Positions 8,340 to 27,641 of a stretch of 64,000 nt of DNA are shown piece after piece. Every line of letters starts with the position of its first letter. The stretch's first letter is position 1. The position numbers and the translations under genes are program-made. Origin of the DNA: an uncultured Actinomycetota bacterium. Lineage in GTDB: Bacteria > Actinomycetota > UBA4738 > HRBIN12. The stretch spans positions 218,568 to 282,567 of the forward strand of contig CAWBIH010000002.1 in NCBI GenBank assembly GCA_963788925.1. Direction: 5' to 3'. The notes under the pieces were generated by a model that saw only the letters and a list, made by a program, of their open reading frames with translations, was not told the DNA's origin and did not search any database.

Positions 8340-10448
8340 ATGGCATCCATCGACACCGACGCCGTGGGCCCGGTCCGCCGGGTGATGGTGGGCACCGATC
8401 GATCCGAAACCGCCACGAGAGCGGTCGAGTGGGCTGCCTCGTTCGCCGAGCGGTTCGGCGCCGAGCTCCACGTCGTGCAGGTGGTCGTCCCCCAGCACCC
8501 GGCCGACACGGAGTACGGCGCGGCCGAAGCGACGCGGGCGCACAGCGCCGCCGACGAGCTCCAGGTCTATACGACACAACTCGCGGGCGAGCGGGGACAC
8601 GCGCATGTGGTGATCGACGACGACCCCGCGATGGCGATCGTGCGCTCCTCCGAGGACCAGGCGGTCGACGTCCTGATCGTCGGGAACGCAGGGATGGCGG
8701 GCCGCAAGGAATTCCTCCTCGGGAACGTGCCGAACCGGATCAGCCACAACGCGCGCTGCACGGTGATCATCGTGAACACCACGAACGGCCAGACGACCGC
8801 GGTGCGGAACCCGTCCTCCGCCACCGCGATCCGTTCATCCCACGCGGAACCGGTGACCCGGCCGCATCTGGTCGCCCGCGGCACGAAGATCGGCGTCGTC
8901 TTCGCGAAGCACGGCCTGCGGGAGCTCTTCGGCCGACCCGACGAGGAGGGCATCGTGGGCCGGCGACGCCAGGCCAAACGACTCCGTACGGCATTGGAGG
9001 AGCTCGGTCCCACGTTCTGCAAGCTCGGTCAGATCCTTTCGACGCGGCCGGACCTGCTCCCGTCTGAGTTCATCGAAGAGCTCGCGACCTTGCAGGACAA
9101 CGTGCCCCCGCTCAGCGAGGCACAGGTCGTTTCGGTGATGGAGCAAGAGCTCGGCGTCCCCTGGGAGGACGTCTTCGAGACGATCGAACCGCACCCGCTC
9201 GCGGCCGGAACGATCGCCCAGGTTCACCGGGCGTCGCTCGCGACGGGAGAGAAGGTCGTGATCAAGATCCAGCGACCCGATGCGCGGGAGCTGATCGAGC
9301 AGGACCTCGCGCTGTTGGAGGTCTTCGCGGAGAAGGCATCGAAACGCCCCGGTCTGAAACTCGTCATCGACATGGAAGCGGTCTTCCAGCACCTGTCGGA
9401 CTCGCTCCAGCGAGAGCTGGACTTCCGACAGGAAGCCTCGAACATGCAGCGGATCGGTGAGGTGCTCGAACCCTTCCCGAGGCTCGCCGTGCCGGCGGTG
9501 CACCGTGACCTGTCCACCTCGCGGCTCCTGGTGATGCACGACGTGGGTGGGGGCCCGCTCGACTCGGCTCCTGAAGGCGCGCCGAGACAGGAGGCTGCCC
9601 GTCAGCTGCTCGAGTCCTTCTACAAGCAGATCATGGTCGACGGGTTCTTCCACGCCGACCCGCATCCAGGGAACCTGATGTGGCAGCCGCTGGAGGAGCG
9701 CCTGTACTTCCTCGACCTCGGGATGGTCGGCGAAGTCGGCGCCGACATGCGCGAACACCTGATGCTCCTCCTGATGGCGTTCTCTCAGGAGGACGTCGGA
9801 TTCCTGACGGACGTCACGCTGATGCTGGCGAACGCGATCGAGCGCAGCGACCTCGACGTGGACAAATTCCAGTCGGAGATCGGGGGGCTCATGGCTCGAT
9901 ACCGGACGTCCTCCCTGAAGGACATCCAACTCGGTCCGATCCTCCAGGAGATGACGGAGATCTCGCTCCGTTTCGGCGTGCCGCTGCCCGCATCGCTGGC
10001 GCTCACCGGCAAGGCCCTCGCGCAGATGCAGCTCGCGACCGCGCAACTCGATCCCGACCTGGATCCCTTCGAAGTGGCCGGCAAGTTCCTGATGCGCAGC
10101 CTGCTGCGCGGGATGGCCGGGCGGATCGATCCGAAGGCGGTCTTCTACCAGTCGCAGAAGCTGAAGGTGCGCGCGATGCGTGTCGTCGAGGCGATCGAGC
10201 GGATGATCGGCGCCCGGCCCGGTCAGAAGATGGAGATCAACTTCCGGGCGGCGCCGCTCGAGGCCACGGTGCGCCGGGCCGGGCGCCAGCTCGCGCTCGG
10301 TCTCACGGCGGGCGCGGCGATCCTCGCGAGCGGGCTGACCGCGATGTCGGCGCGGGTGCCCGGTTGGGTTCCGATCACGTTCGGCATCGTCGGCGGCGTG
10401 CTGACGTTCGGGTTGCTCCTGGACCTCTTCAACAACCGCAGCCGCTAG
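8340..10448 (+). CDS. universal stress protein domain fused to an ABC1/UbiB-family atypical protein kinase with C-terminal TM helices
   Basis: N-terminus has the USP ATP-binding signature (VGNAGMAGRKEFLLGNVPNRISH). The remainder shows ABC1/UbiB kinase motifs (EELGPTFCKLGQILSTRPDLLP, HADPHPGNL). Start taken at the in-frame ATG at 8340. Confidence 0.75.
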   Translation: MASIDTDAVGPVRRVMVGTDRSETATRAVEWAASFAERFGAELHVVQVVVPQHPADTEYGAAEATRAHSAADELQVYTTQLAGERGHAHVVIDDDPAMAIVRSSEDQAVDVLIVGNAGMAGRKEFLLGNVPNRISHNARCTVIIVNTTNGQTTAVRNPSSATAIRSSHAEPVTRPHLVARGTKIGVVFAKHGLRELFGRPDEEGIVGRRRQAKRLRTALEELGPTFCKLGQILSTRPDLLPSEFIEELATLQDNVPPLSEAQVVSVMEQELGVPWEDVFETIEPHPLAAGTIAQVHRASLATGEKVVIKIQRPDARELIEQDLALLEVFAEKASKRPGLKLVIDMEAVFQHLSDSLQRELDFRQEASNMQRIGEVLEPFPRLAVPAVHRDLSTSRLLVMHDVGGGPLDSAPEGAPRQEAARQLLESFYKQIMVDGFFHADPHPGNLMWQPLEERLYFLDLGMVGEVGADMREHLMLLLMAFSQEDVGFLTDVTLMLANAIERSDLDVDKFQSEIGGLMARYRTSSLKDIQLGPILQEMTEISLRFGVPLPASLALTGKALAQMQLATAQLDPDLDPFEVAGKFLMRSLLRGMAGRIDPKAVFYQSQKLKVRAMRVVEAIERMIGARPGQKMEINFRAAPLEATVRRAGRQLALGLTAGAAILASGLTAMSARVPGWVPITFGIVGGVLTFGLLLDLFNNRSR

Positions 10449-10870
10449 GCGGAGCCGGCGCTGTCGACGCGCTCCTGGACCTCGCGCAGTCGCTCGACGA
10501 CGCCGTGGAGGATCGCGACCGCGACGCTCGGGTTCTGGATCAGGAACGGGTCGAAGTAGATCGTCTCGATCACCAAGGCCTCCACCGGCTCCGCCGCCGT
10601 GACGCTCGCGGACCGGCGCGTGTGTCCGAGCAACGCCATCTCGCCGAAGAAGTCTCCGGGCGCGAGGTCGTGGACGGCGCCGCCGACCTCGACCTGCGCG
10701 GCACCCGACAGGATCACGAAGAGGCCGCCGCGGTCGGAGTCGCGCTCGACGAGCGCGTCGCCGGCCGCGTAGCTGCGTCGCTGACCGACCTTGGCGACAC
10801 GCGAGAGATCGTCGTCCGTCAGCTCCTCGAAGAAGCGGACCTTGCGGAGGGCCTCGACATCGCTCGTCAT
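10445..10870 (-). CDS. stand-alone cyclic-nucleotide-binding (CAP-effector) domain protein
   Basis: 141 aa with a canonical phosphate-binding cassette (FGEMALL ... RRSASVTA). Confidence 0.8.
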   Translation of the reverse strand: MTSDVEALRKVRFFEELTDDDLSRVAKVGQRRSYAAGDALVERDSDRGGLFVILSGAAQVEVGGAVHDLAPGDFFGEMALLGHTRRSASVTAAEPVEALVIETIYFDPFLIQNPSVAVAILHGVVERLREVQERVDSAGSA

Positions 10871-14990: not shown

Positions 14991-17067
14991 TCAGGCAGCC
15001 GTGACCGGCACCCGGCCCGCTACCGTGGTGCCGCGGCCGGGTGCCGACCGGATCTCGAGAGAGCCTCCCACGGCTGCGAGCCGGTCGGCCATGCCCTGGA
15101 GGCCGGAGCCGGTGGCCACGGCGTCCGGGTCGAAGCCGCGGCCCTCGTCGACGACCTCGAACGAAAGGCTGCCGTTCGATTGCGACAGATGGATCACGGT
15201 GCGATCCGCGTCGGCGTACTTGGCAACGTTCTGGAGCGCCTCGAGGGCGCAGAAGTAGACGGTGGCCTCCACGTCGACGGAGTAACGGCCCACCGCGTCC
15301 GCCTCCACGCTCACGGGGACGGCAGCCTTCCTTGACTGCGCCTCGAGGGCTGCGACCAAACCACGATCGGCGAGCAGCGGAGGATAGATGCCACGGGCGA
15401 GATCCCTCAGGTCTTCCAGCGCCGTCTGGGTCTCCGTCTCGATCTGGATGAGCATCTCCGCGGTCTTCGCCGGATCGCGCTCCGTCAGTTGCCGGGCGAG
15501 CCGAGCCTTGACGGCGAGCGCGACGAGCTGCTGCTGGGCGCCGTCATGGATGTTGCGCTCCAGGCGACGCCGCTCCTCGTCCTGCGCAGCGACCAGACGC
15601 TGGCGTGAAGCCCGGAGGTCCTCCACGAGACGGACGTTGCGAAGCACGAGGCCCGCCTGGGCGGCGAGGTCGCGGACCAACTTCTCCTTCGTGGGATTCA
15701 TCGGGTCGGCAGCCGGCATGCGAACCGAAAGCGCCCCGAGGAGCTCCCCGCGATCGCGGACCTCGACGGCAGTTTCGCCCGGGACGCTCCACACCTCCCC
15801 GTCGGTGGTGGGGACAGCACCGATGACGGTCGCGTCTTCAGGCCAGGCGGCCGCCTGGCGAAGCTCGCGTCCAGCCCGTAACCACACGCGGGCCACCTCC
15901 GCGCCGGCGCCCTCGCCGAGTACCTGGGCCATCCGAGGCAGCACGTCCTCGGTCGCGTAGGACGTCCCCACGCGCTCGGAGAACTCCGTCAGCACCTCGT
16001 ACGGCGTGGCACGCCGGCCGTAGACGAACCGATCGACCACCTTGCGGGCGATGCGCATGACGGGTCGGAAGGCGATCCCGAGCAGGAGCGCGATGACGAA
16101 CAGGGATCCGGGACTTTGGCGGTCGGCGGCCGCAACGCCGAACAACGCGACCGCGCCCCCGTACACCGCGAGTGCCAACACCACGAGTGCTCCGGCGACG
16201 AGCGCCTTCTTCACCACGACATCCAGGTCCCACAGGCGGTACTGCAAGATCGCGATCCCGACGGTCAAAGGGATTCCGAGGAAGGCCAGGCCCGAGATGA
16301 ACTCGCCCACACCTCCCTCCGAGATGCCGAGGCCCTCGAGGATCGCGCTGATCACGAAGTAGGTGGCGAGCACGACGACCGCGAACGCGAACCATTTGAG
16401 CTGCTGTCGCTCGACGCCGCTCGACCGGCGGAATCGGATGACCATCGACGTGGCCGCCGCCGCGAAGAGGCCGAGGAGCACCGGCCAGAGCACGTTCCCG
16501 ATGGATTCGATCTCCAGCCCGGGGATATGCAGTGGGTTCGCGACCGTGATCGTTGGACCGACGTCACCGAGCTCGAACGTGGCTGTCCCGAACCCGATCG
16601 TGACGAACGCGAGGATCGAGATGCCGACACCCGCCCAGGCGAGCCACCGCCAGCGAGGTGACGGCAGCTCTCCGTTGGGGAAGACCAGGGGGAGGAGGAT
16701 CAACAGCGGGAAGAGCCCGAGGGCCCAGAGCGCGTTGCCCGGCCAGGCGAGCCACGACGCGAGAGCGGGCTCGCCTTGTGTGGCCGCGTAGATCGACGCC
16801 TCGCCGGTCGTGAAGGCCGCGCCCACCGTGATCGCGACCCAGAGGAGCAGCCATCCGATCCGATTGTCCGGTGCCCGGCTCAAGCTCAGGGCGCCGACGA
16901 CGCCCATCCCCATGAACGCGGTGAAGTTCGTGGAATCGCCGAGGAGCGAGTCATCCGTTCAGTGACACGAGGACCAGGCCGATCGCCGCGAAGCCAGCCG
17001 TGACCCAGAGCACGATCCAGGGCCATCGAGACGGCCGCGACGTCGGTGTCGCCGTAGTCGCGGCCAT
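14991..17067 (-). CDS. membrane sensor histidine kinase (multi-TM sensor - GAF-like - HisKA_3 - HATPase_c), paralogue 1, with a frame break near 16950-16980
   Basis: HisKA_3 motif (ERNIHDGAQQQLVAL) and HATPase G-boxes. The N-terminus (PSRWPWIVLWVTAGFAAIGLVLV) matches the paralogues at 19710 and 21839 but lies in another frame. The start ATG at 17067 shares one base with the upstream stop (TGATG). Confidence 0.8.
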
Positions 17068-18353
17068 CACGCGCCGCCCCCCAGGATCCGGAAGACTTCA
17101 ACAGGCTCTTCGCGGCCTTTGACGAGACGGGGACCGATCGACTCGGCGGCGACCGAGGGCGCCGCTGAGACGGTCGAGGCCGCGGCGACGACCTCGCCGC
17201 CCTTGGCCTCGGATTGGAGACGCTGCGCGACGTTGACGGCGTCGCCGATCACCGTGTACTCGAGTCGGCCGCCGCCGCCGATCGCGCCGGCCATGACGAT
17301 CCCGGTGTTCAGCCCGATCCCGACGTGAAGTCCGTCGACCGCCTCGGTCCCCCACCCCATCGAGTTGAGCTCGCGCTGGCGATCCTGCATGGCGAGCGCG
17401 CACTGCAGCGCCCGCTCGGCATGATCCGAAGACGGCTCCGGAGCACCGAAGACGGCCATCACGGCGTCGCCCTGGAACTTGTCGATCGTGCCGCCGTGCT
17501 CGGAGATCACCTCGGCCATCGCGCCGAGGTGACGTCCGACGATCTCGCCGATCTCCCGAGCCGTGAGTCGCTCCGCGATCGTGGAGAAGCCACGGATGTC
17601 GCTGAACAGGACGGTCACCTCGAGCTCGCGCTGGCTCGCGGCGTCACCGCCGCGAGCCAGCGCGTCCACGAACTGCGACGGCACGTAGGACTTGAGCGAC
17701 GTCGCCGTGGCCGACTGCTCGACGACCGCCGCGTGCAGCTTCTTGAACTCCCCCAGCAGGCCGGTGCCGGCTCCGCCGTCACCGGCCATCCGCCGGAAGA
17801 GCATCGTCACGCGCCCGTCCACGGCCTCTTGGGTCGTGCCCAGGGCGGCCGCCATCGCCTCGTAGCCGAGACCCTGAGCCATCATGTCGAGCACGATGCG
17901 GTCCTCCTCCTGGGACTCGGCCCGCCCCGACAGACGTTCGGCGATCGTGGGATCGACGACGCTCCCGCCGCTCTGCACTTCCCGGATCGCACGGGCGAGC
18001 TCGTCGCCCTGCGCGATCCGGTCCTTCAGCAGGTACGCGAGCCCGCTGTGTCCCTTGCCGAGCAGCGCGATCGCGTACTCCTCGTCGTCGTGCGCCGAAA
18101 GCACCACCACGCCCGTATCCGGGTGACGCTCGCGGATCGCGTGGGCGCAGTCGATCCCCTCGAGCTGGAAGGAGGGCGGCATCTTGATGTCGGTCACGAC
18201 GACGTCGGGGCTGTGCTCCGCCGCCGTCGCCAGGAGTGTCGGTGCATCCTCCGCGACCCCGACGACCTCGATGTCGTCATAGGAGTTCAGGAGCGCCCGG
18301 ACGCCCTCACGCACGAGGACGTTGTCCTCCCCGAGCACCACTCTGATCGTCAC
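17067..18353 (-). CDS. response-regulator receiver - LuxR-like HTH - class III adenylate/guanylate cyclase fusion
   Basis: GTG start at 18353. The REC domain has the phosphoacceptor context VVVTDIKMP. The HTH-like segment is DRIVLDMMAQGLGYEAMAAALGTTQEAV. The C-terminal cyclase homology domain includes VLFSDIRGFS, KFQGDAVMAVFGAP and IGLNTG. Confidence 0.75.
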   Translation of the reverse strand: MTIRVVLGEDNVLVREGVRALLNSYDDIEVVGVAEDAPTLLATAAEHSPDVVVTDIKMPPSFQLEGIDCAHAIRERHPDTGVVVLSAHDDEEYAIALLGKGHSGLAYLLKDRIAQGDELARAIREVQSGGSVVDPTIAERLSGRAESQEEDRIVLDMMAQGLGYEAMAAALGTTQEAVDGRVTMLFRRMAGDGGAGTGLLGEFKKLHAAVVEQSATATSLKSYVPSQFVDALARGGDAASQRELEVTVLFSDIRGFSTIAERLTAREIGEIVGRHLGAMAEVISEHGGTIDKFQGDAVMAVFGAPEPSSDHAERALQCALAMQDRQRELNSMGWGTEAVDGLHVGIGLNTGIVMAGAIGGGGRLEYTVIGDAVNVAQRLQSEAKGGEVVAAASTVSAAPSVAAESIGPRLVKGREEPVEVFRILGGGA

Positions 18354-18391
18354 GCAACCGCCCCCAACTTCCTCGCGTGTACCATCCGCGC

Positions 18392-19058
18392 ATGCCGCTG
18401 CGGGTGGTCTTCGCCGAGGATAACTACCTCGTGCGGGAAGGAACCGCCGCCCTCCTCGCGACCGCCGACGAGGTCGAGATCGTGGGCACGGCGGCAAGCC
18501 TCGATGAGCTGCTCTCCGCGGTCGACGAGCACGGACCCGACGCCGTGCTCACCGATATCCGGATGCCGCCCAGCGGGACCGACGAGGGGATCCGGGGTGC
18601 CAAGCAGATCCGCGCGTCGCACCCGGACATCGGGGTCGTCGTGCTGTCGCAGTTCGCGGAGGAGGAATACGCGTACGACCTGCTGAAGGACGGAGCGGCC
18701 GGCCTCGGCTACCTGTTGAAGGAGCGCGTGGCCGACGTCGAGGAGCTGGTGCGGGCGCTGACGGAGGTGGCCCGCGGTGGCAGCGTCCTCGATCCCGAAG
18801 ATCGTCGAGGCGCTCGTCGCCGCGAAGGAGCACCTCGCGCATTCGCCGCTCGCCAGGCTGACCGACCGGGAGCGCGAGGTGCTCGGCCACATGGCCCAGG
18901 GGCAGAACAACGCCGCCATCGCGAAGTCGCTCTTCCTCACCGAGCGCGCGGTCGAGAAGCACATCAACTCGCTGTTCCACAAGCTGGGACTGACCGAGGA
19001 GCCCGACGTGCACCGCCGGGTGATGGCGGTGCTCGCCTTCCTCCGCGATCAGTCGTAG
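18392..19058 (+). CDS. NarL/LuxR-family response regulator, with a frame break near 18790-18800 at a CCC run
   Basis: REC domain (MPLRVVFAEDNYLVREG...VLTDIRMP...), then a LuxR HTH (LTDREREVLGHMAQGQNNAAIAKSLFLTERAVEKHINSLFHKL) in the next frame. Transcribed divergently from the cyclase gene. Confidence 0.8.
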
Positions 19059-19709: not shown

Positions 19710-21842
19710 GTGAGCTTGCCGGCGACGCAGGCCCGGCTCGATCAGCCCAGATCGCGCTGGCCGTGGCTGCTCTGCGCGCTCGCGGTGCTCCTGGTGCTCG
19801 CGGCGATCACGCTCTACGTCATCGGCGGACCCGGCGACCAGGCTTCGACGGACACCCTCGTGTTCCTGCCTGTGGTCCTCCTCACCATCCTGGGCTACTC
19901 GACCGTCGGGGCGATCCTCGCCTCGAGGAACACGAGGAACCCGATGGGCTGGATCATGTTGACGGTCGGTCTTGCCTTCGCCCTCGCACAGGCGACGGAG
20001 ACCTACGCCAAGTACACCCTGGAGATCGATCCCGGCGTCCTCCCGTTCGGTGCGGTCGCCGCCTGGTTCGGGACCTGGGACTACGCCGTCGCGTTCTGCG
20101 CGCTTCTGGTTCTCGCCCAGCTGTATCCCTCGGGCCGTGTCCTCAGCCCCCGCTGGCGGAAAGTGCCATGGATCGTGGTGGCGGCCGCATCCGTCGCATC
20201 GGTGGGAACGGCGTTGGGTCCGGGAACGCTCGAGGTCGAGACCGGGTTCGCGGTCGATAACCCCTTCGGGCTCGAGGCGATCCGTCCGATCGTCGAGATC
20301 ACCGGTGGGATCGGATGGATCGTTCTGCTCGCCTCGGTGCCGGTCTCGATCGCGTCGCTCGTGCTGCGCTTCCGCCGCTCGGAGGGCGAATCGAGGCAAC
20401 AGATCCGATGGCTCGCCTTCATCGCCGTCGCGGTGGTCGCATCCCTCCTGCTTGCCGCCGCGGCCGTGATCGTCTTCGGAGAGCGATTCGACCGATCCAT
20501 CGGTCCAGAGGTGTTCTTCGGCGTGATCTTCTCGCTCATCGGCGTGGGCGTGCCGGCGGCGATGGGTGTCGCGGTCCTGAAGTACCGCCTCTACGACCTC
20601 GACCTCGTGATCAAGAAGACGATCGTGTTCGCGATCCTGGTCCTGCTGCTGCTCGCCCTCGTGGGCGTCGGCGCCCTGCTGCTCGGCGGCACGCTGGTGC
20701 CGTCGCTCTCCGACCGGCCCCCGCTGCTCGTCGTGTTCGGAGTCGTGTTCGGGCTGCTCGTCATCCCGGCGTACCGGCTGGCGCGCAGGATCGCGGATCG
20801 CGTGGTCTACGGCGGTCGAGCGTCTCCCTACGAAGTCCTTTCCGAGTTCTCCGAACGGGCGAGCGAGACGTACTCGACCGAGGACGTGCTGCCGCGGATG
20901 GCGCAGCTGATCGGCCAGGCCACGGGCGCGGACGCAGCGAGGGTGTGGCTCAAGGTCGGCTCCGAGCTGCGCCCGGCGGCCGCCTGGCCGGCCGAGGCGA
21001 TCGGGACACGATCGCTGCCTTCTCGTGACGGCGAGCTGCCCGACTTCGAGGACACGGCCGTCGAGATCCGCCACCAAGGTGAGCTGCTCGGTGCCCTCAC
21101 GCTCGAGATGCGCGCGAGCGATCCGATGAATCCGTCGAAAGAGCGGATCGTCCGTGACCTTGCCTCGCAGACCGGCCTCGTGCTTCGGAACGTGCGCCTC
21201 ATCGAAGAGCTCCGAGAGTCCCGGCGCAGGATCGTCACGGCGCAGGACGAGCGCGCCAGGAAGCTCGAACGCAACATCCACGACGGCGCACAACAGCAGC
21301 TGGTCGCGCTGGCCGTGAAGGTCGGGCTCGTCGAACGCCTCGTACAGGCCGACGCGCAGAAGGCCGTGGCGATGCTCGGCGAGGTGAAGAGCGAAGCCAA
21401 CGACGCGCTCGAGAACCTCCGAGATCTCGCGCGAGGGATCTACCCGCCGCTGCTCGCCGACCAGGGCCTCGCCGCGGCGCTGGGCGCGCAGGCTCGGAAG
21501 GTGTCGATCCCGGTCGCCGTCGAGCCGGACGGGATCGGCCGCTATCCGGAAGAGACGGAGGCGGCGGTGTATTTCTCCTGCCTCGAAGCCCTGCAGAACA
21601 TCACGAAGTACGCGGGCGCGTCGAGGGTGACCGTGCGGCTCGCTCAGGCCGACGGCACCCTTACGTTCGAGGTGAGCGACGACGGCCGAGGCTTCGACCC
21701 GGGCGTCGTCGGACACGGCACGGGTCTCCAGGGGATCGCCGACCGCCTCGCCTCGCTCGGCGGCGAGCTCGAGGTCAGGTCGGCGATCGGCGACGGCACG
21801 ACCGTTGCCGGACGCCTCCCGGTCCGTGGGGAAAGCCCATGA
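19710..21842 (+). CDS. membrane sensor histidine kinase (multi-TM - GAF-like - HisKA_3 - HATPase_c), paralogue 2
   Basis: GTG start at 19710 preceded by a GAAGG ribosome-binding site. The track ORF from 19161 overlaps the antisense usp gene and is too long. The GAF/HisKA_3/ATPase region is highly similar to the kinases at 14991 and 21839. Confidence 0.85.
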   Translation: MSLPATQARLDQPRSRWPWLLCALAVLLVLAAITLYVIGGPGDQASTDTLVFLPVVLLTILGYSTVGAILASRNTRNPMGWIMLTVGLAFALAQATETYAKYTLEIDPGVLPFGAVAAWFGTWDYAVAFCALLVLAQLYPSGRVLSPRWRKVPWIVVAAASVASVGTALGPGTLEVETGFAVDNPFGLEAIRPIVEITGGIGWIVLLASVPVSIASLVLRFRRSEGESRQQIRWLAFIAVAVVASLLLAAAAVIVFGERFDRSIGPEVFFGVIFSLIGVGVPAAMGVAVLKYRLYDLDLVIKKTIVFAILVLLLLALVGVGALLLGGTLVPSLSDRPPLLVVFGVVFGLLVIPAYRLARRIADRVVYGGRASPYEVLSEFSERASETYSTEDVLPRMAQLIGQATGADAARVWLKVGSELRPAAAWPAEAIGTRSLPSRDGELPDFEDTAVEIRHQGELLGALTLEMRASDPMNPSKERIVRDLASQTGLVLRNVRLIEELRESRRRIVTAQDERARKLERNIHDGAQQQLVALAVKVGLVERLVQADAQKAVAMLGEVKSEANDALENLRDLARGIYPPLLADQGLAAALGAQARKVSIPVAVEPDGIGRYPEETEAAVYFSCLEALQNITKYAGASRVTVRLAQADGTLTFEVSDDGRGFDPGVVGHGTGLQGIADRLASLGGELEVRSAIGDGTTVAGRLPVRGESP

Positions 21843-23920
21843 ATCAGCGGCGTCTCGCCTGGACGATCTGGGGCGTCTCGGTCGCGTTCCTCATCGCGTG
21901 GTTGATCGTGGACGCGTCGAGCACGCCGGTCGACATCGGCGAGTACGCCTTCGTCGTGTTCGCGGTGCTCCTGTACTCGACCGTCGGAGTACTGATCACG
22001 TCGCGACAGCCGGCGAACCGCGTCGGCCTGTTGTTCGCCTGGGTCGGGCTCTCCGCGTCCATCAGTGGCCTGGCGGGCTCGTACGCCGTCATGGCCCAGC
22101 AGCGGGACCTGCCTTTCCTCGCCGCGTCGGCATGGGTCGGGCGGGTCGGGTTCGTCGCGATGTTCGGTCCGCTCGCGTTCCTCTTCCTCATCTTCCCCAC
22201 CGGCCGGCCACTGTCCCGCCGCTGGGGCTGGCTCATGAAGGCGATGATGGTCGGCTTCGCCATCACGCTGATCGGGTTCGCGTTCACTCCCGGATCCCTC
22301 ACCGCCGGGTTCGCCGAACTGCCGCGCCCGGTCGCGAACCCGATCGGGTTCCCGATCTCCTGGAAGCCGGCGATGGAGGCGGTCACGACAGCAGCCGGTT
22401 TCCTCGTGTTCGTCGGTGCGCTGCTGTCCGTCGTCTGCCTGATCCAGCGCTACCGTCGCGCCGCGCAGCTCGAGCGGCAGCAGATCAGATGGCTGGCGTT
22501 CCTCGGTGTGTTCCTCGGGGTCATCTTGTTGATCTCCATGGGGCTGTTCTCCACCGGCATCGTCAGCGACGACAGCGTCGCCTCGGGCGTCGCCTTCTTC
22601 ACCTTCATCTTCGGCGTGTTCCTCGGCATCCCGGCGGTGTGCGGCCTCGCGATCCTGCGGCACGGCCTGTGGGACCTCGACGTCGTGGTCCGGAAGACCG
22701 TGCAGTACGGACTCCTCGTCGCCGGGTTCGTGCTTGTCCTGGGGGTCGTCGTCTTCCTGGCGCCGCTCATGTTCATCGGCGTGGGAGGCAGCGTCGATGT
22801 GCCGACGCTCGTGGTCGCAGCCCTCCTCGCGGTCGGGTTCACGTTGGTGCGGTCCCGGGCGCGCCGTTGGGCGAATCGGATCGTCTACGGCAAGCGATCG
22901 ACCCCGTACGAGGTCCTCTCCGAGTTCGCCGAACGCGTAGGAGGTACGTACTCAACGGAGGACGTCCTCCCGCGGATGGCCCAGCTCCTCGGTGAAGCGA
23001 CCGGCGCGCGGGAGGCTCGGGTCTGGCTGCGCATCGGCAACGAGATGCGGGCGGATGCATCCTGGCCTCTCGATGCCGCGCAGACCCGGAACGTGCCGGC
23101 CCGGGCAGACGAGCTCCCAGACTTCGGTGACGACGTTGCATTCGAAGTGAGGCACCAGGGCGAGCTGCTCGGTGCGCTCACCGTTTCCGTGGCGGCCAAC
23201 GACCCGATGAACCCGACGAAGGAGAAGCTCGCGCGCGATATGGCCGCACAGGCGGGCCTGGTGCTCAGGAACGTCCGCCTGATCGAGGACCTTCGGGAAT
23301 CGCGCCGCCGGATCGTCAGCGCGCAGGACGAGCGAGCCCGCGCGCTGGAGCGGAACATCCACGACGGCGCGCAGCAACAGCTCGTGGCCCTCTCGGTGAA
23401 GCTCCGCCTCGCGACCGGGTTCGTCGAACGCGACCCGGCGAAGGCCAGGGCCATGTTGGAGGAGCTGCAGGGCCAGACGACGGAGACGCTGGAGGACCTC
23501 CGCGATCTCGCTCGAGGGATCTACCCGCCGCTGCTCGCCGACAAGGGTCTTCCAGCCGCGTTGGAAGCCCAGGCGAGGAAGTCGCCCGTTCCCGTGACCG
23601 TGCAACCCGACGGTGTGGGCCGCTACCGCCAAGATGTCGAGTCGGCCGTCTACTTCTGTTGTCTCGAGGCGCTCAACAATGTCGCGAAGTACGCCGACGC
23701 GTCCTCCGTCGAGATCCGCCTGCAGCAGAGCGACGGCGAGCTTCGTTTCCAGGTGGCGGACGACGGGCGCGGATTCGACACCGCGGCCATGAGTGACGGC
23801 ACCGGTCTCCAGGGGATGGCCGACCGCCTCGACGCGATCGGAGGGATGTTCGAGATCGTGAGCGTCCCCGGGGCCGGCACCACCGTGACGGGCCGGCTTG
23901 CGGTGCTGGAGGCCGGTTAG
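21839..23920 (+). CDS. membrane sensor histidine kinase, paralogue 3
   Basis: 693 aa with the same architecture. Its ATG overlaps the stop of the previous kinase as ATGA, indicating tandem duplication with translational coupling. Confidence 0.85.
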   Translation: MNQRRLAWTIWGVSVAFLIAWLIVDASSTPVDIGEYAFVVFAVLLYSTVGVLITSRQPANRVGLLFAWVGLSASISGLAGSYAVMAQQRDLPFLAASAWVGRVGFVAMFGPLAFLFLIFPTGRPLSRRWGWLMKAMMVGFAITLIGFAFTPGSLTAGFAELPRPVANPIGFPISWKPAMEAVTTAAGFLVFVGALLSVVCLIQRYRRAAQLERQQIRWLAFLGVFLGVILLISMGLFSTGIVSDDSVASGVAFFTFIFGVFLGIPAVCGLAILRHGLWDLDVVVRKTVQYGLLVAGFVLVLGVVVFLAPLMFIGVGGSVDVPTLVVAALLAVGFTLVRSRARRWANRIVYGKRSTPYEVLSEFAERVGGTYSTEDVLPRMAQLLGEATGAREARVWLRIGNEMRADASWPLDAAQTRNVPARADELPDFGDDVAFEVRHQGELLGALTVSVAANDPMNPTKEKLARDMAAQAGLVLRNVRLIEDLRESRRRIVSAQDERARALERNIHDGAQQQLVALSVKLRLATGFVERDPAKARAMLEELQGQTTETLEDLRDLARGIYPPLLADKGLPAALEAQARKSPVPVTVQPDGVGRYRQDVESAVYFCCLEALNNVAKYADASSVEIRLQQSDGELRFQVADDGRGFDTAAMSDGTGLQGMADRLDAIGGMFEIVSVPGAGTTVTGRLAVLEAG

Positions 23921-23927
23921 ACCTGCC

Positions 23928-24305
23928 TCAGGCGGCGCCGCGCGCGGCGGCCCACGCCTCTTCCAGCCGGTCGGGGCCGAAGGCCGACTTGGGGATGTAG
24001 GCGGCCGCGCCGCACTCCGCGGCGCGCGGCGCGTACTCCTCTTCTTCATACGTCGACAGGAGCAACACGACGGAGCTGTTCGCGTTGTCGGCGAGGATCT
24101 GGCGAGTGGCGTCGAGCCCGTTGATCCCCGGCAGGTTCACGTCCATCAGGACGAGATCCGGCGTGAGATCGGACGCCATCGTCACGGAATCCTCACCGGT
24201 CTCGGCTTCGCCCACGACTTCGAAGCCCTCCGTGGCATCGACCACCATCCTGGCCGCCATCCGGAAGGGCTCCTGATCGTCCACGATGAGAACCCGCACC
24301 GTCAT
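23928..24305 (-). CDS. single-domain response regulator (REC only)
   Basis: Start at MTVRVLIVDDQ. Has the conserved Asp context (LVLMDVNLP) and no output domain. Convergent with kinase 3. Confidence 0.75.
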   Translation of the reverse strand: MTVRVLIVDDQEPFRMAARMVVDATEGFEVVGEAETGEDSVTMASDLTPDLVLMDVNLPGINGLDATRQILADNANSSVVLLLSTYEEEEYAPRAAECGAAAYIPKSAFGPDRLEEAWAAARGAA

Positions 24306-24388
24306 CCGTTCCTCCACACGCAAGCGTCCCACCGACGGCTGCATGCGCCAGGGGTGCCAGCACCACAGTTGTCGTCCCCCGAGCGACC

Positions 24389-25544: not shown

Positions 25545-27641
25545 TCAGTCGGAGGGCAAGGCCTCGGGTTCGGCCTCGTCATCGTTCGAGCCCGTCGCAC
25601 CCGACTCCGCGGCGCCGGCGGCCGGCTTGAGCGATCCGGCGCCGCCGCCTTCCTCACGCTCACCGATCGCTTTGTCGAGCGCGACCCGCACGGCGTCGAA
25701 CACCTCGGCCACGGGCTTGTCCGCGTCGATGACGACGATCCGCTCCGGGTGTTCTTCGGCGATCTTCAGGTACGCGTCGGCCACCTTGGCGTGGAAGTCC
25801 TGCCCCTCGAGCTCCATCCGGTCGGGCGCCTCGGTCGACCGGAGCAAGCCTCGCTCGGGTTCCAGATGCAGCAGGATCACGAGGTCGGGGAACAGCCCTT
25901 GCGTACCCCACACGTTCAACGTGAGGATGTCCTGCTCGCCCAAGCCTCGCCCCCACCCCTGGTACGCGAGCGAGGAGTCCACGTATCGGTCACAGATCAC
26001 GACCTTCCCCTCCGCGAGGGCGGGCCGGATCACCGAATGCACCGTCTGCGCGCGCGAGGCCGCGAACAGCAAGGCTTCGGTCCGCGAGTCGAGCTTCCCC
26101 GTCTCGGGGTCCAGCAGCAGCTCACGCACCCGTTCGCCGACCGCGGTCCCCCCCGGCTCGCGCGTCACCAGCACGTCGTACCCCTCGGAGCGCATGAACT
26201 CCTCCGCCATCCGCACCTGGGTGCCCTTGCCGGAGCCCTCGACGCCCTCGAAGGCGATGAAGAACCCGGTGGCCGGTGGCCGCTTCAGCTTCGGCACGAG
26301 GGTGAGGGGTTGGGGGCGAGAGAGCCGGTATCGCTTGAGGAGCCGCCACGTGTTGAGACCGGCGATGGCCACCGCGATGCCCGCGCTCGCGAGAGCCAGT
26401 CGGATCCCGAGCTCGGAGCCGGCGCCCAACGTCCCATAGACACCCGCCAGCGTAGGGAACGTGGCGAGGGAGAGGAACAACCCCATCCGCGAAAGCACCG
26501 TGAGCGAGGCGAACGTGCGACCTCGGAACTCGTCCCGGACGTTCTCCTGCAGCAAGGTGTAGCCGGTGACCCAGGCCAGCCCGCAGAACGCACCGAGCCA
26601 GACGGTCACGACGGCGGCGAAGGCGAACGTCGGCATCGCCGAGAGCACGAACAGGGTGGCGGCGGCCACGACGATCGACCACGGGAAGATCGAGACGCGA
26701 TCGATGAGGCGGGAGACCTGGTTGGCGCTCGCCATCCCCAGGCCGATCCCGACGCCGAACGCCGTGACCATGAACCCCCAGCCCCCCTTGTCGGCGCCGA
26801 GGGTGTCGACGACGAAGATCGGCGCGAGCGCCAACACGGCGCCGACGGCGGAGAAGGCGACCACGATCCCGGCCGTCATCGCCGAGGCCATGGAGTCCTC
26901 GCGGAGGAACCGGATCCCGTCGCGCACGTCGCGCCAGATGCGCGAGAAGTCCAGACGCCCGGTGAGCATCGCCGGCGAGGGAGGGATCGGAACGCGGCTG
27001 ATCATGGCGGCCGAGAACACGAACGTCGCGGCGTCGAGGAACAGCGGCACGGCCTGGTCGCGTCCTCGGAGGATCGGGATCGCGTGGCTGAGCAGCGTGT
27101 TCAGTCCGACGAGCACGGTGAACACGATCCCGCCGAGCGGAAGGGTGCCGTAGGTGGAAGCGAGCGCGATCGAGTTCGCGTTCGCGAGCTGGCGGCGGGG
27201 AACCAAGTTGGGGAGCGACGCGTCGCGGGCGGGCCCCCAGACGAGAGAGAAGCTCTCGATCGCGAACGACAGCGCGTAGATCGCCCAGAGTTGCCCGATG
27301 AACACCATCGCGACGTACATCGTGCCGCGGGCGAGGTCGGCCATGACCATGATGCGTTTCCGGTCCAGCCGGTCGACGAGGGTCCCGGCGATCGGCCCGA
27401 ACAAGACGGCGGGGAGCGTGCGCGCGAGCATCAGGCCCGCGACGGAGAACGCGGCTCCGCCGGTGCCGCCGGCGAGATCCGCAACGAGCGAGGTCACGGC
27501 GAGGAATCCCACCCAGTCCCCGAGCGAGGACACGGACATCGCTGCGAGGAGCCGCGCGAACGGCGGATGCGTGAGCAGATCGCCGAGCGTCGCCGACCGG
27601 GTGCCGCGAAGCGCGGCAACCTCGTCGGCGACGCTCGCCAC
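25545..27641 (-). CDS. tmk: thymidylate kinase fused to an N-terminal 12-TM MFS-like membrane domain
   Basis: 698 aa. About 430 aa of polytopic membrane domain are followed by a Tmk P-loop (FIAFEGVEGSGKGTQ), DRY motif and lid. From memory, the same fusion occurs next to topA in Streptomyces. Confidence 0.8.
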   Translation of the reverse strand: MASVADEVAALRGTRSATLGDLLTHPPFARLLAAMSVSSLGDWVGFLAVTSLVADLAGGTGGAAFSVAGLMLARTLPAVLFGPIAGTLVDRLDRKRIMVMADLARGTMYVAMVFIGQLWAIYALSFAIESFSLVWGPARDASLPNLVPRRQLANANSIALASTYGTLPLGGIVFTVLVGLNTLLSHAIPILRGRDQAVPLFLDAATFVFSAAMISRVPIPPSPAMLTGRLDFSRIWRDVRDGIRFLREDSMASAMTAGIVVAFSAVGAVLALAPIFVVDTLGADKGGWGFMVTAFGVGIGLGMASANQVSRLIDRVSIFPWSIVVAAATLFVLSAMPTFAFAAVVTVWLGAFCGLAWVTGYTLLQENVRDEFRGRTFASLTVLSRMGLFLSLATFPTLAGVYGTLGAGSELGIRLALASAGIAVAIAGLNTWRLLKRYRLSRPQPLTLVPKLKRPPATGFFIAFEGVEGSGKGTQVRMAEEFMRSEGYDVLVTREPGGTAVGERVRELLLDPETGKLDSRTEALLFAASRAQTVHSVIRPALAEGKVVICDRYVDSSLAYQGWGRGLGEQDILTLNVWGTQGLFPDLVILLHLEPERGLLRSTEAPDRMELEGQDFHAKVADAYLKIAEEHPERIVVIDADKPVAEVFDAVRVALDKAIGEREEGGGAGSLKPAAGAAESGATGSNDDEAEPEALPSD

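Follow-up and report, generated by a model that had tools for sequence, protein, structure and literature searches.

Here we describe RR-AC, a response-regulator adenylyl cyclase encoded in a 64,000-nucleotide stretch of DNA (hereafter the window) from an uncultured Actinomycetota bacterium (assembly GCA_963788925.1, contig CAWBIH010000002.1, positions 218,568 to 282,567 of the forward strand). Judged from its sequence and predicted structure, RR-AC is probably a response regulator with an adenylyl cyclase as its output, attached to a NarL-type regulator in which the DNA-binding domain has degenerated. From the N-terminus it consists of a receiver (residues 1-120), a LuxR-type helix-turn-helix (HTH) domain (147-190), a Gly-rich linker, a signalling helix with a putative cyclase transducer element (CTE; together 199-244) and, at 245-420, a class III cyclase domain. 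An earlier interpretation of the same DNA, made from the letters alone and referred to here as the sequence-only reading, had proposed a receiver followed by a degenerate LuxR-type HTH and a complete cyclase homology domain (CHD), and this order is borne out by Pfam, by alignments to NarL-family models and by a profile of the protein family.

The RR-AC frame runs from a GTG start at 18353 to a TGA stop at 17069-17067 with neither a stop nor a break of frame inside it. ATG or GTG occupies this start position in ~70 related loci, many relatives using ATG, and the N-terminus follows the pattern M/V-T/S-I-R-V-V-L-G-E-D-N across orthologues. A longer open reading frame (ORF) reaching back to 18497 was rejected as the coding region, as the extension is antisense to the neighbouring gene and the orthologues place the start of translation at 18353. 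An uninterrupted protein of 423-432 aa with the same architecture is encoded at 79 loci of species-representative genomes and in more than 120 protein clusters, and RR-AC differs from its relatives by zero non-triplet indels. The recurrence of the same unbroken protein in all these clusters and loci excludes any concealed stop or shift of frame, and the region is one gene of 428 codons, as the sequence-only reading had supposed, and not the two genes that it had named as the alternative. These comparisons rest on close orthologues of RR-AC, as a look-up in public assemblies returned no record of the exact protein, and the residue-conservation counts given below refer to 80 sequences, namely 79 orthologues and the window protein. 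One family member of 506 aa (P0074) carries an internal duplication of ~75 receiver residues, which is probably an assembly artefact.

Both ends of the protein are recognised by Pfam, with a Response_reg match over residues 6-104 that lies far above the gathering score and a Guanylate_cyc match (PF00211) over residues 240-417 that reaches 90.3 bits against a cut-off of 21.9 (E-values in Table 1). In the receiver, the phospho-acceptor D55, the acidic residues E9 and D10, S86 and K110 are each invariant in 80/80 sequences. AlphaFold2 (AF2) models this domain with a predicted local distance difference test score (pLDDT) mostly above 80, apart from two 10-residue blocks at 62-64, and Foldseek aligns it to the receivers of DesR, VraR and NarL with TM-scores of 0.84-0.88 (target-normalised). 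The fold, acceptor Asp, acidic pocket, Thr/Ser and Lys that characterise a receiver are thus all in place.

At the other end of the protein, the metal-binding residues D252 and D296, the substrate residues K292 and T367 and the transition-state residues N374 and R378 are conserved in all 80 sequences, and the possibility that catalytic Asp, Asn or Arg residues might be lacking on alignment can be set aside. Family profile, fold, the two Asp, the Asn and the Arg together identify the domain as a class III cyclase. Its best sequence matches in the PDB are Synechocystis Cya2 (2w01, 2e-35) and Pseudomonas CyaB (3r5g, 4.7e-31), with Spirulina CyaC also close, and an engineered adenylyl-cyclase variant of Cya2 (6fht) is among the closest solved relatives by sequence. 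The AF2 model of the cyclase core has a pLDDT of 75-94 and superimposes on CyaB, Cya2 and CyaC with TM-scores of 0.81-0.86 (target-normalised). K292 aligns with Glu488 of Cya2 and with Lys488 in the 6fht variant, and the E488K exchange turns Cya2 from a guanylyl into an adenylyl cyclase (PMC5995499). The second specificity residue, T367, lies within LEYTVIGDAVN; replacement of the substrate-binding Asp by Thr or Ser, with the Lys kept, defines subclass IIIb (PMC2613629), to which the nearest neighbours CyaB, Cya2 and CyaC also belong.

The K292/T367 pair thus marks RR-AC as a class IIIb adenylyl cyclase, with cAMP rather than cGMP as its predicted product. The sequence-only reading had left both nucleotides open: cAMP agrees with the Lys/Thr pair, which on alignment is of the adenylyl type, and cGMP does not, the base-specifying position being Lys and not Glu. 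All three motifs that it had quoted from the CHD were located (VLFSDIRGFS with D252, KFQGDAVMAVFGAP with K292 and D296, and IGLNTG at 347-351), but IGLNTG, which it had counted among the substrate-specifying segments, is instead a conserved core strand, the second specificity residue being T367. An enzyme with the complete catalytic set in one chain should act as a homodimer that has two active sites (PMC2613629), and with all six residues in a single chain RR-AC should be a head-to-tail homodimer of this kind. A response to CO2/bicarbonate has been reported for every prokaryotic IIIb enzyme studied up to 2009 (PMC2613629), and by analogy RR-AC may be stimulated in the same way.

The middle domain is a genuine HTH of the LuxR type that has diverged from its NarL-type ancestor. 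Pfam GerE (PF00196) gave no match at E<=1 in the window protein, and in this respect RR-AC falls outside the NarL/FixJ family, whose members carry a C-terminal GerE HTH that the family model recognises; relatives of RR-AC gave sub-threshold matches to GerE and Sigma70_r4_2. Full-length NarL-family models (MctR, MadR, NarL and NarP) align with RR-AC from residue 3 to ~180-190, and the full-length NCBIfam equivalogs score it at 53-106 bits against cut-offs of 242-343. Sequence matches in the PDB include DosR (residues 3-189) and NarL (5-189). A further comparison is with the divergently transcribed NarL-type regulator encoded next to RR-AC, which after reconstruction is 48% identical to it over residues 1-189 (BLASTP, E 6e-53) in an alignment that spans the recognition helix (LGTTQEAVDGRVTMLFRRM vs LFLTERAVEKHINSLFHKL). 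A profile of the middle region built from 13 family members matches the isolated DNA-binding domains of NarL (1je8, 1.6e-5), DosR (1zlj, 8.6e-5) and others. Over residues 1-190 the AF2 model has a pLDDT mostly above 80, with three helices at 149-189 scoring 86-90, and the best Foldseek matches to this part are full-length DesR, LiaR, VraR and NarL (E 7e-11 to 2e-9).

Between HTH and cyclase lies the least conserved part of RR-AC, the linker at residues 191-198, with a major-residue frequency of 0.54 and 0/8 invariant columns. It is followed by two helices (~199-220 and ~226-233), both predicted with low confidence in the AF2 fragment model. HMMER alignments with bPAC, OaPAC and Rv1625c begin at RR-AC residues 216-223, inside the CTE segment, and Foldseek aligns the whole 197-428 fragment, helices included, to 6fht, 5o5l, OaPAC and bPAC over 231-242 columns. 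The CTE of class IIIa/b cyclases is a helical, conserved stretch of ~19 residues that comes after a coiled-coil helix and immediately precedes the CHD. It has been described with the motif FGRY (PMC5995499), where RR-AC has LKSY at a pLDDT of 41-51. Two models were used: a full-length run on a shallow family alignment, in which receiver and HTH were confident and the cyclase had a pLDDT of 30-50, and a second model of residues 197-428 for which sister cyclase domains were added to the alignment. A mixed alignment of RR-AC with full-length cyclases of the transmembrane (TM)-GAF-CHD type was left unused for modelling, as their TM and GAF parts had been mis-aligned onto the receiver and HTH.

The sequence-only reading held that phosphorylation could control DNA binding as well as cyclic nucleotide synthesis, and the evolution of the HTH speaks against the first part of this proposal. 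Over 71 genomes the mean pairwise identity of RR-AC is 71% in the HTH-like domain, 88% in the receiver and 78% in the CHD, whereas in the neighbouring NarL regulator from the same 71 genomes the HTH (alpha7-alpha9) is the most conserved part at 90%, against 78% for the receiver, and the recognition helix is essentially invariant. The net charge of the HTH is -2 to -5 in RR-AC and around 0/+1 in the neighbour (range -2 to +2, with one outlier). Within the HTH-like domain of RR-AC it is the basic positions 180, 181, 187 and 188 that vary, while E176, D179 and T183 are invariant or nearly so. Reversed conservation, negative charge and variable basic residues together make controlled DNA binding by RR-AC unlikely. 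Basic residues are scarce or absent in the recognition helix of the distant homologues P0125 and P0128, and the canonical alpha10 dimerisation helix is replaced in RR-AC by the variable Gly-rich linker and the long helix into the cyclase. E176 and D179 align with DosR K179 and K182, two of its three base-contacting residues (PMC5861037), and the residue matching K179 is Glu in 79/80 RR-AC sequences. Charge reversal at these contacts was considered as proof of lost DNA binding and then downgraded to a weak argument, because the canonical NarL neighbour also has Glu at the K182 position.

On these features we lean towards the view that specific DNA binding by the HTH has been lost, and the module probably serves as an adaptor or clamp between receiver and cyclase. 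Several observations weigh against our overall interpretation. The HTH-like domain is still under some selection, as E176, D179 and T183 show; up to four Arg are kept in the recognition helix on the branch of the window; and the NarL neighbour with Glu at the K182 position is itself presumed to bind DNA. AF2 confidence is low for residues 192-245 in both models, and the geometry that couples receiver to cyclase is predicted only. If, moreover, the frameshifts that interrupt the partner kinase and the NarL regulator in the window are real, the RR-AC system would be orphaned in this organism.

The points concerning the HTH would fit a bifunctional regulator, in which the HTH still binds DNA and phosphorylation sets both transcription and cAMP synthesis, or in which the cyclase is tethered to a promoter. 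Such a regulator would explain the retention of the HTH fold at high AF2 confidence, its significant homology to the DNA-binding domains of NarL and DosR, the near-invariance of E176, D179 and T183 on the exposed face of the recognition helix, and the two to four Arg that most family members keep there; the paralogous neighbour, as noted, is likewise acidic at the K182 position. We nevertheless regard it as unlikely, since the HTH-like domain is the least conserved domain of RR-AC and the HTH the most conserved part of the neighbour, the charges of the two differ, the residues that vary are basic and those that do not are acidic or polar, the K179 equivalent is Glu, the helix of the distant homologues is poor in basic residues, and alpha10 has been exchanged for a helix leading into the cyclase.

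The most economical mechanism that we can infer is a rearrangement of the receiver dimer relayed through the helices. The TM-GAF-HisKA_3 kinase encoded in the same operon, and possibly its tandem paralogues, would phosphorylate D55; phosphorylation would alter receiver dimerisation and so free or reorient the HTH-like module, as in other NarL-family regulators; movement of the module would bring the two parallel helices and the transducer elements into a particular register; and the two cyclase domains would then close into an active dimer that converts ATP to cAMP. The sign of regulation could also be the opposite, with unphosphorylated RR-AC active and phosphorylation, or dephosphorylation driven by the kinase, switching the cyclase off. 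We do not expect this, given that the receiver-linked cyclase activity of CyaC is reportedly under His-Asp phosphotransfer, which activates it, and that REC-GGDEF cyclases, which are active only as dimers, are switched on by phosphorylation-dependent dimerisation. What keeps the opposite sign in consideration is that isolated class III cyclase domains are often basally active (PMC5995499).

A more adventurous proposal, which we consider doubtful, is that the decayed HTH has been repurposed as a phosphorylation-controlled protein-protein interface, its E176/D179/T183 surface clamping the transducer helix or forming a heterodimer with the NarL paralogue. If true, transcription and cAMP synthesis would both be governed by one kinase array, acting on two regulators in physical contact.

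It is very improbable that cGMP, or some product other than cAMP, is formed by the cyclase domain, or that this domain is catalytically dead and merely regulatory. This reading can draw on the top PDB sequence match, Cya2, being a guanylyl cyclase, and on the Gln that P0125 and P0128 have at the position of the substrate Lys; in RR-AC, however, all 80 sequences have K292 and T367, none of the metal-binding, Asn and Arg residues is lost, and a change of Glu488 to Lys suffices to make Cya2 an adenylyl cyclase. The two distant homologues, which share the order REC, HTH-like domain and CHD and are 44-47% identical to RR-AC, carry their Gln in the contexts VMQFVGD and VMQYVGD, and P0125 has in addition Ser in place of Thr at the second specificity position, which hints at altered substrate selection in these sister clades. 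That RR-AC is itself an assembly artefact, a NarL regulator and a separate cyclase joined by a sequencing indel, is already refuted by the unbroken ORF in 79 independent loci of metagenome-assembled genomes (MAGs) and more than 120 clusters from several assemblers and sequencing platforms and by the lack of non-triplet indels, even though neighbouring genes in the window are interrupted by three or more single-base insertions.

Table 1. Coordinates of RR-AC, its domains and the surrounding features in the window.
Feature	Position	Strand	Basis
RR-AC gene, 428-aa response-regulator adenylyl cyclase	17067..18353	-	ORF/translation, Pfam, orthologues
Receiver (REC), residues 1-120	17994..18353	-	Pfam Response_reg (PF00072), E 1.6e-17
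alpha6 linker, residues 121-146, preceding the HTH-like domain	17916..17993	-	
Diverged LuxR/GerE-type HTH, residues 147-190, helices ~ NarL alpha7-alpha9	17784..17915	-	BLASTP, profile, AF2
Variable Gly-rich linker, residues 191-198, GDGGAGTG	17760..17783	-	Conservation alignment
Signalling helix (~199-220) and short putative CTE helix (~226-233; SLKSYVPSQFVDAL) leading into the CHD	17622..17759	-	HMMER, AF2, Foldseek
Class IIIb cyclase homology domain, residues 245-428	17070..17621	-	Pfam Guanylate_cyc, E 1.5e-25
Histidine kinase of the same operon (multi-TM sensor, GAF, HisKA_3, HATPase_c)	14991..17070	-	Sequence reading, Pfam
Divergent paralogous NarL-type regulator, REC + GerE, 221 aa reconstructed	18392..19058	+	ORFs, Pfam
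Conserved 15-nt non-coding element, GTGTACCATCCGCGC on the + strand	18377..18391	.	Alignment of ~70 loci
Universal stress protein (USP), 135 aa	19100..19507	-	Pfam Usp, E 7.3e-26
Two tandem paralogous TM-GAF-HisKA_3 kinases (~19710-21842 and 21839-23920)	19710..23920	+	ORFs, Pfam
Stand-alone receiver, 138 aa, closing the kinase array	23928..24344	-	ORF
Stand-alone cNMP-binding protein, 141 aa, ~6 kb downstream of RR-AC	10445..10870	-	Pfam cNMP_binding, E 7.3e-16

The genes around RR-AC (Table 1) form a recurrent cluster. As the sequence-only reading had it, RR-AC is the first gene of its operon: the GTG/ATG start of the downstream kinase overlaps the RR-AC stop (GTGA) in the window, an arrangement that couples the two translationally, and a HisKA_3 kinase lies directly downstream on the same strand in 61/68 loci with enough flank, although the copy in the window is frameshifted. 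At locus L001 an intact 690-aa orthologue of the kinase overlaps the RR-AC stop by 4 nt. The divergent NarL-type regulator starting at 18392 was also correctly recognised, and is broken in the window by a 1-nt insertion at 18793 that puts its REC and HTH in different frames. After reconstruction it matches GerE (Pfam, E 4.3e-14), and nearly all related loci encode an unbroken orthologue of 221 aa.

The 38-bp divergent spacer between RR-AC and this regulator contains the conserved 15-nt element, which abuts the ATG of the NarL regulator and is kept, with few exceptions, across the ~70 aligned loci; outside it the spacer (26-65 bp) varies in length and sequence. Possible roles of the element are that of a TACCAT -10 box, with the NarL regulator translated from a leaderless mRNA, and that of an operator. 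A scan of 16700-18700 for sigma-70 consensus promoters and terminators found nothing, a result that is uninformative for a high-GC actinobacterium.

Across the 80 loci the core of USP, NarL regulator, spacer of 26-65 bp and RR-AC is essentially universal, the USP gene adjoining the NarL regulator in nearly all of them. The idea that this protein is a cAMP-binding USP was dropped, as the PDB search returned generic USP matches alone. Of the two tandem kinases beyond it, the first has its likely start at 19710, and related loci hold 0-4 such kinases upstream of RR-AC. With three paralogous kinases of the multi-TM, GAF and HisKA_3 type in the window and up to six in relatives, the arrangement suggests a multi-kinase network that feeds two to three receivers. 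In locus L001 the order is a tandem array of five or more HisKA_3 kinases, of which the outermost is truncated by the locus end, then USP, NarL regulator, 38-bp spacer and RR-AC, followed by the overlapping kinase, membrane, cupredoxin and Usp-Rieske genes and the cNMP-binding protein. The gene for the cNMP-binding protein, a candidate cAMP receptor, occurs at 12 of the 15 loci with RR-AC identity of at least 88%, two of the 15 being too short to reach it, and at none below 88%. Overall the cluster resembles a conserved island of several kinases that has three receivers as outputs, namely a NarL transcription factor, a cyclase and a stand-alone receiver.

Users of this assembly should be aware that, relative to all close relatives, single-base insertions interrupt the NarL regulator (18793), the partner kinase (~16952) and a Usp-Rieske-FAD reductase (~11451). 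The insertion at ~16952, seen against three close relatives, separates an N-terminal TM piece from the rest of the kinase. A region-wide indel survey at 85% DNA identity was too noisy to yield a genome-wide error rate, but these three insertions alone were reproducible across all comparators and are probably assembly errors rather than recent pseudogenes. Elsewhere in the window, a 698-aa ORF at 25545-27641 (-), adjoining holB and topA, joins an MFS transporter (residues 35-432) to a thymidylate kinase (464-649) and is either an unusual fusion or a frame artefact.

All matches to the RR-AC family are Actinomycetota MAGs, at least 80 of them species-level genomes with a full-length orthologue and many from one large series of metagenome-assembled genomes, and at 50% clustering about four clusters have the full RR-AC architecture, making the family phylogenetically narrow and frequent within its lineage. 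Outside the family, the cyclase domains most similar to that of RR-AC share 50-54% identity with it from about residue 188 onwards to the C-terminus, a span that takes in the helix and CTE, and belong to TM-GAF-CHD proteins of roughly 690-780 aa (P0140, P0145) with the same Lys/Thr hexad. These one-component cyclases form a large metagenomic family (P0140, P0145, P0271-P0389; loci L082 and L083); the genomic context of their genes is unrelated to the RR-AC cluster and uninformative. Over their N-terminal 490 residues these cyclases share 33-37% identity (E 1e-48 to 1e-74) with the multi-TM and GAF sensor half of each of the three window kinases. The same sensor and cyclase lineages are therefore found either fused or linked by a relay, which gives independent support for a functional pairing of kinase and RR-AC. 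A second fusion concerns the stand-alone receiver, which is kept in at least 43/80 loci and shares 60% identity (E 7e-38) with an additional receiver at the C-terminus of the distant homologue P0125 (REC-HTHlike-CHD-REC), suggesting that the stand-alone receiver may act on the cyclase too.

RR-AC overturns no concept, and we consider its value moderate. To our knowledge, cAMP signalling is unexplored in these soil Actinomycetota, which are abundant and known from MAGs alone, and the RR-AC family offers a testable route from membrane sensor to cAMP in them. It also represents a case of domain repurposing, in which an HTH would have been retained for structure while its DNA-reading surface was let go. 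The paired one- and two-component versions of one sensor-cyclase pathway should be useful for studies of helix coupling and for the design of regulated cyclases; if our interpretation is correct, the two alternative connections between one TM-GAF sensor and one cyclase amount to a natural experiment in turning a DNA-binding regulator into an enzyme regulator.

Compared with known systems, RR-AC combines features that are otherwise found apart. The one-component TM-GAF-CHD cyclases carry sensor and cyclase in one chain and lack phosphotransfer, receiver and HTH. In REC-GGDEF proteins of the PleD/WspR type a receiver likewise controls a nucleotide cyclase, but the catalytic domain belongs to another fold family, the product is c-di-GMP and there is no HTH remnant. 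With the NarL/DosR/DesR/VraR family RR-AC shares the full fold over residues 1-190 and a putative partner kinase of the HisKA_3 type, as is usual there, and differs from it in a GerE domain below Pfam detection, an acidic and poorly conserved recognition helix and an enzymatic output. The Mycobacterium tuberculosis proteins Rv0386, Rv1358 and Rv2488c are likewise single actinobacterial polypeptides with both a class III CHD and an HTH of the LuxR type (PMC3466318). In this Rv0386 type, however, the CHD is N-terminal and the HTH, which is canonical, C-terminal, a receiver is absent and a large NB-ARC/TPR module is present. A survey reported the combination of CHD and LuxR domains only in Mycobacterium (PMC3466318), and in the literature that we searched the Rv0386 type was the sole architecture with a CHD and a LuxR-type HTH. 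Our full-text searches found no description of a REC-LuxR-HTH-CHD protein, although absence there is not proof of absence. Receiver-controlled adenylyl cyclases as such are known, few of them characterised, and we found none built on a complete NarL-type regulator scaffold.

The closest parallel is CyaC of Spirulina and Anabaena, which has a receiver-regulated cyclase domain that, like that of RR-AC, is of class IIIb with a Lys/Thr pair, and with whose structures (1wc0-1wc6) the RR-AC cyclase shares 32% identity and TM-scores of 0.79-0.83 (target-normalised). CyaC is a hybrid protein of the order REC-GAF-HK-REC-CHD that contains its own histidine kinase (HK), whereas RR-AC is a separate regulator with a NarL-type receiver, an HTH remnant before the cyclase and its kinase in a separate gene. 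Judging by its sequence, then, RR-AC would work like a receiver-regulated class IIIb adenylyl cyclase, on the principle of CyaC.

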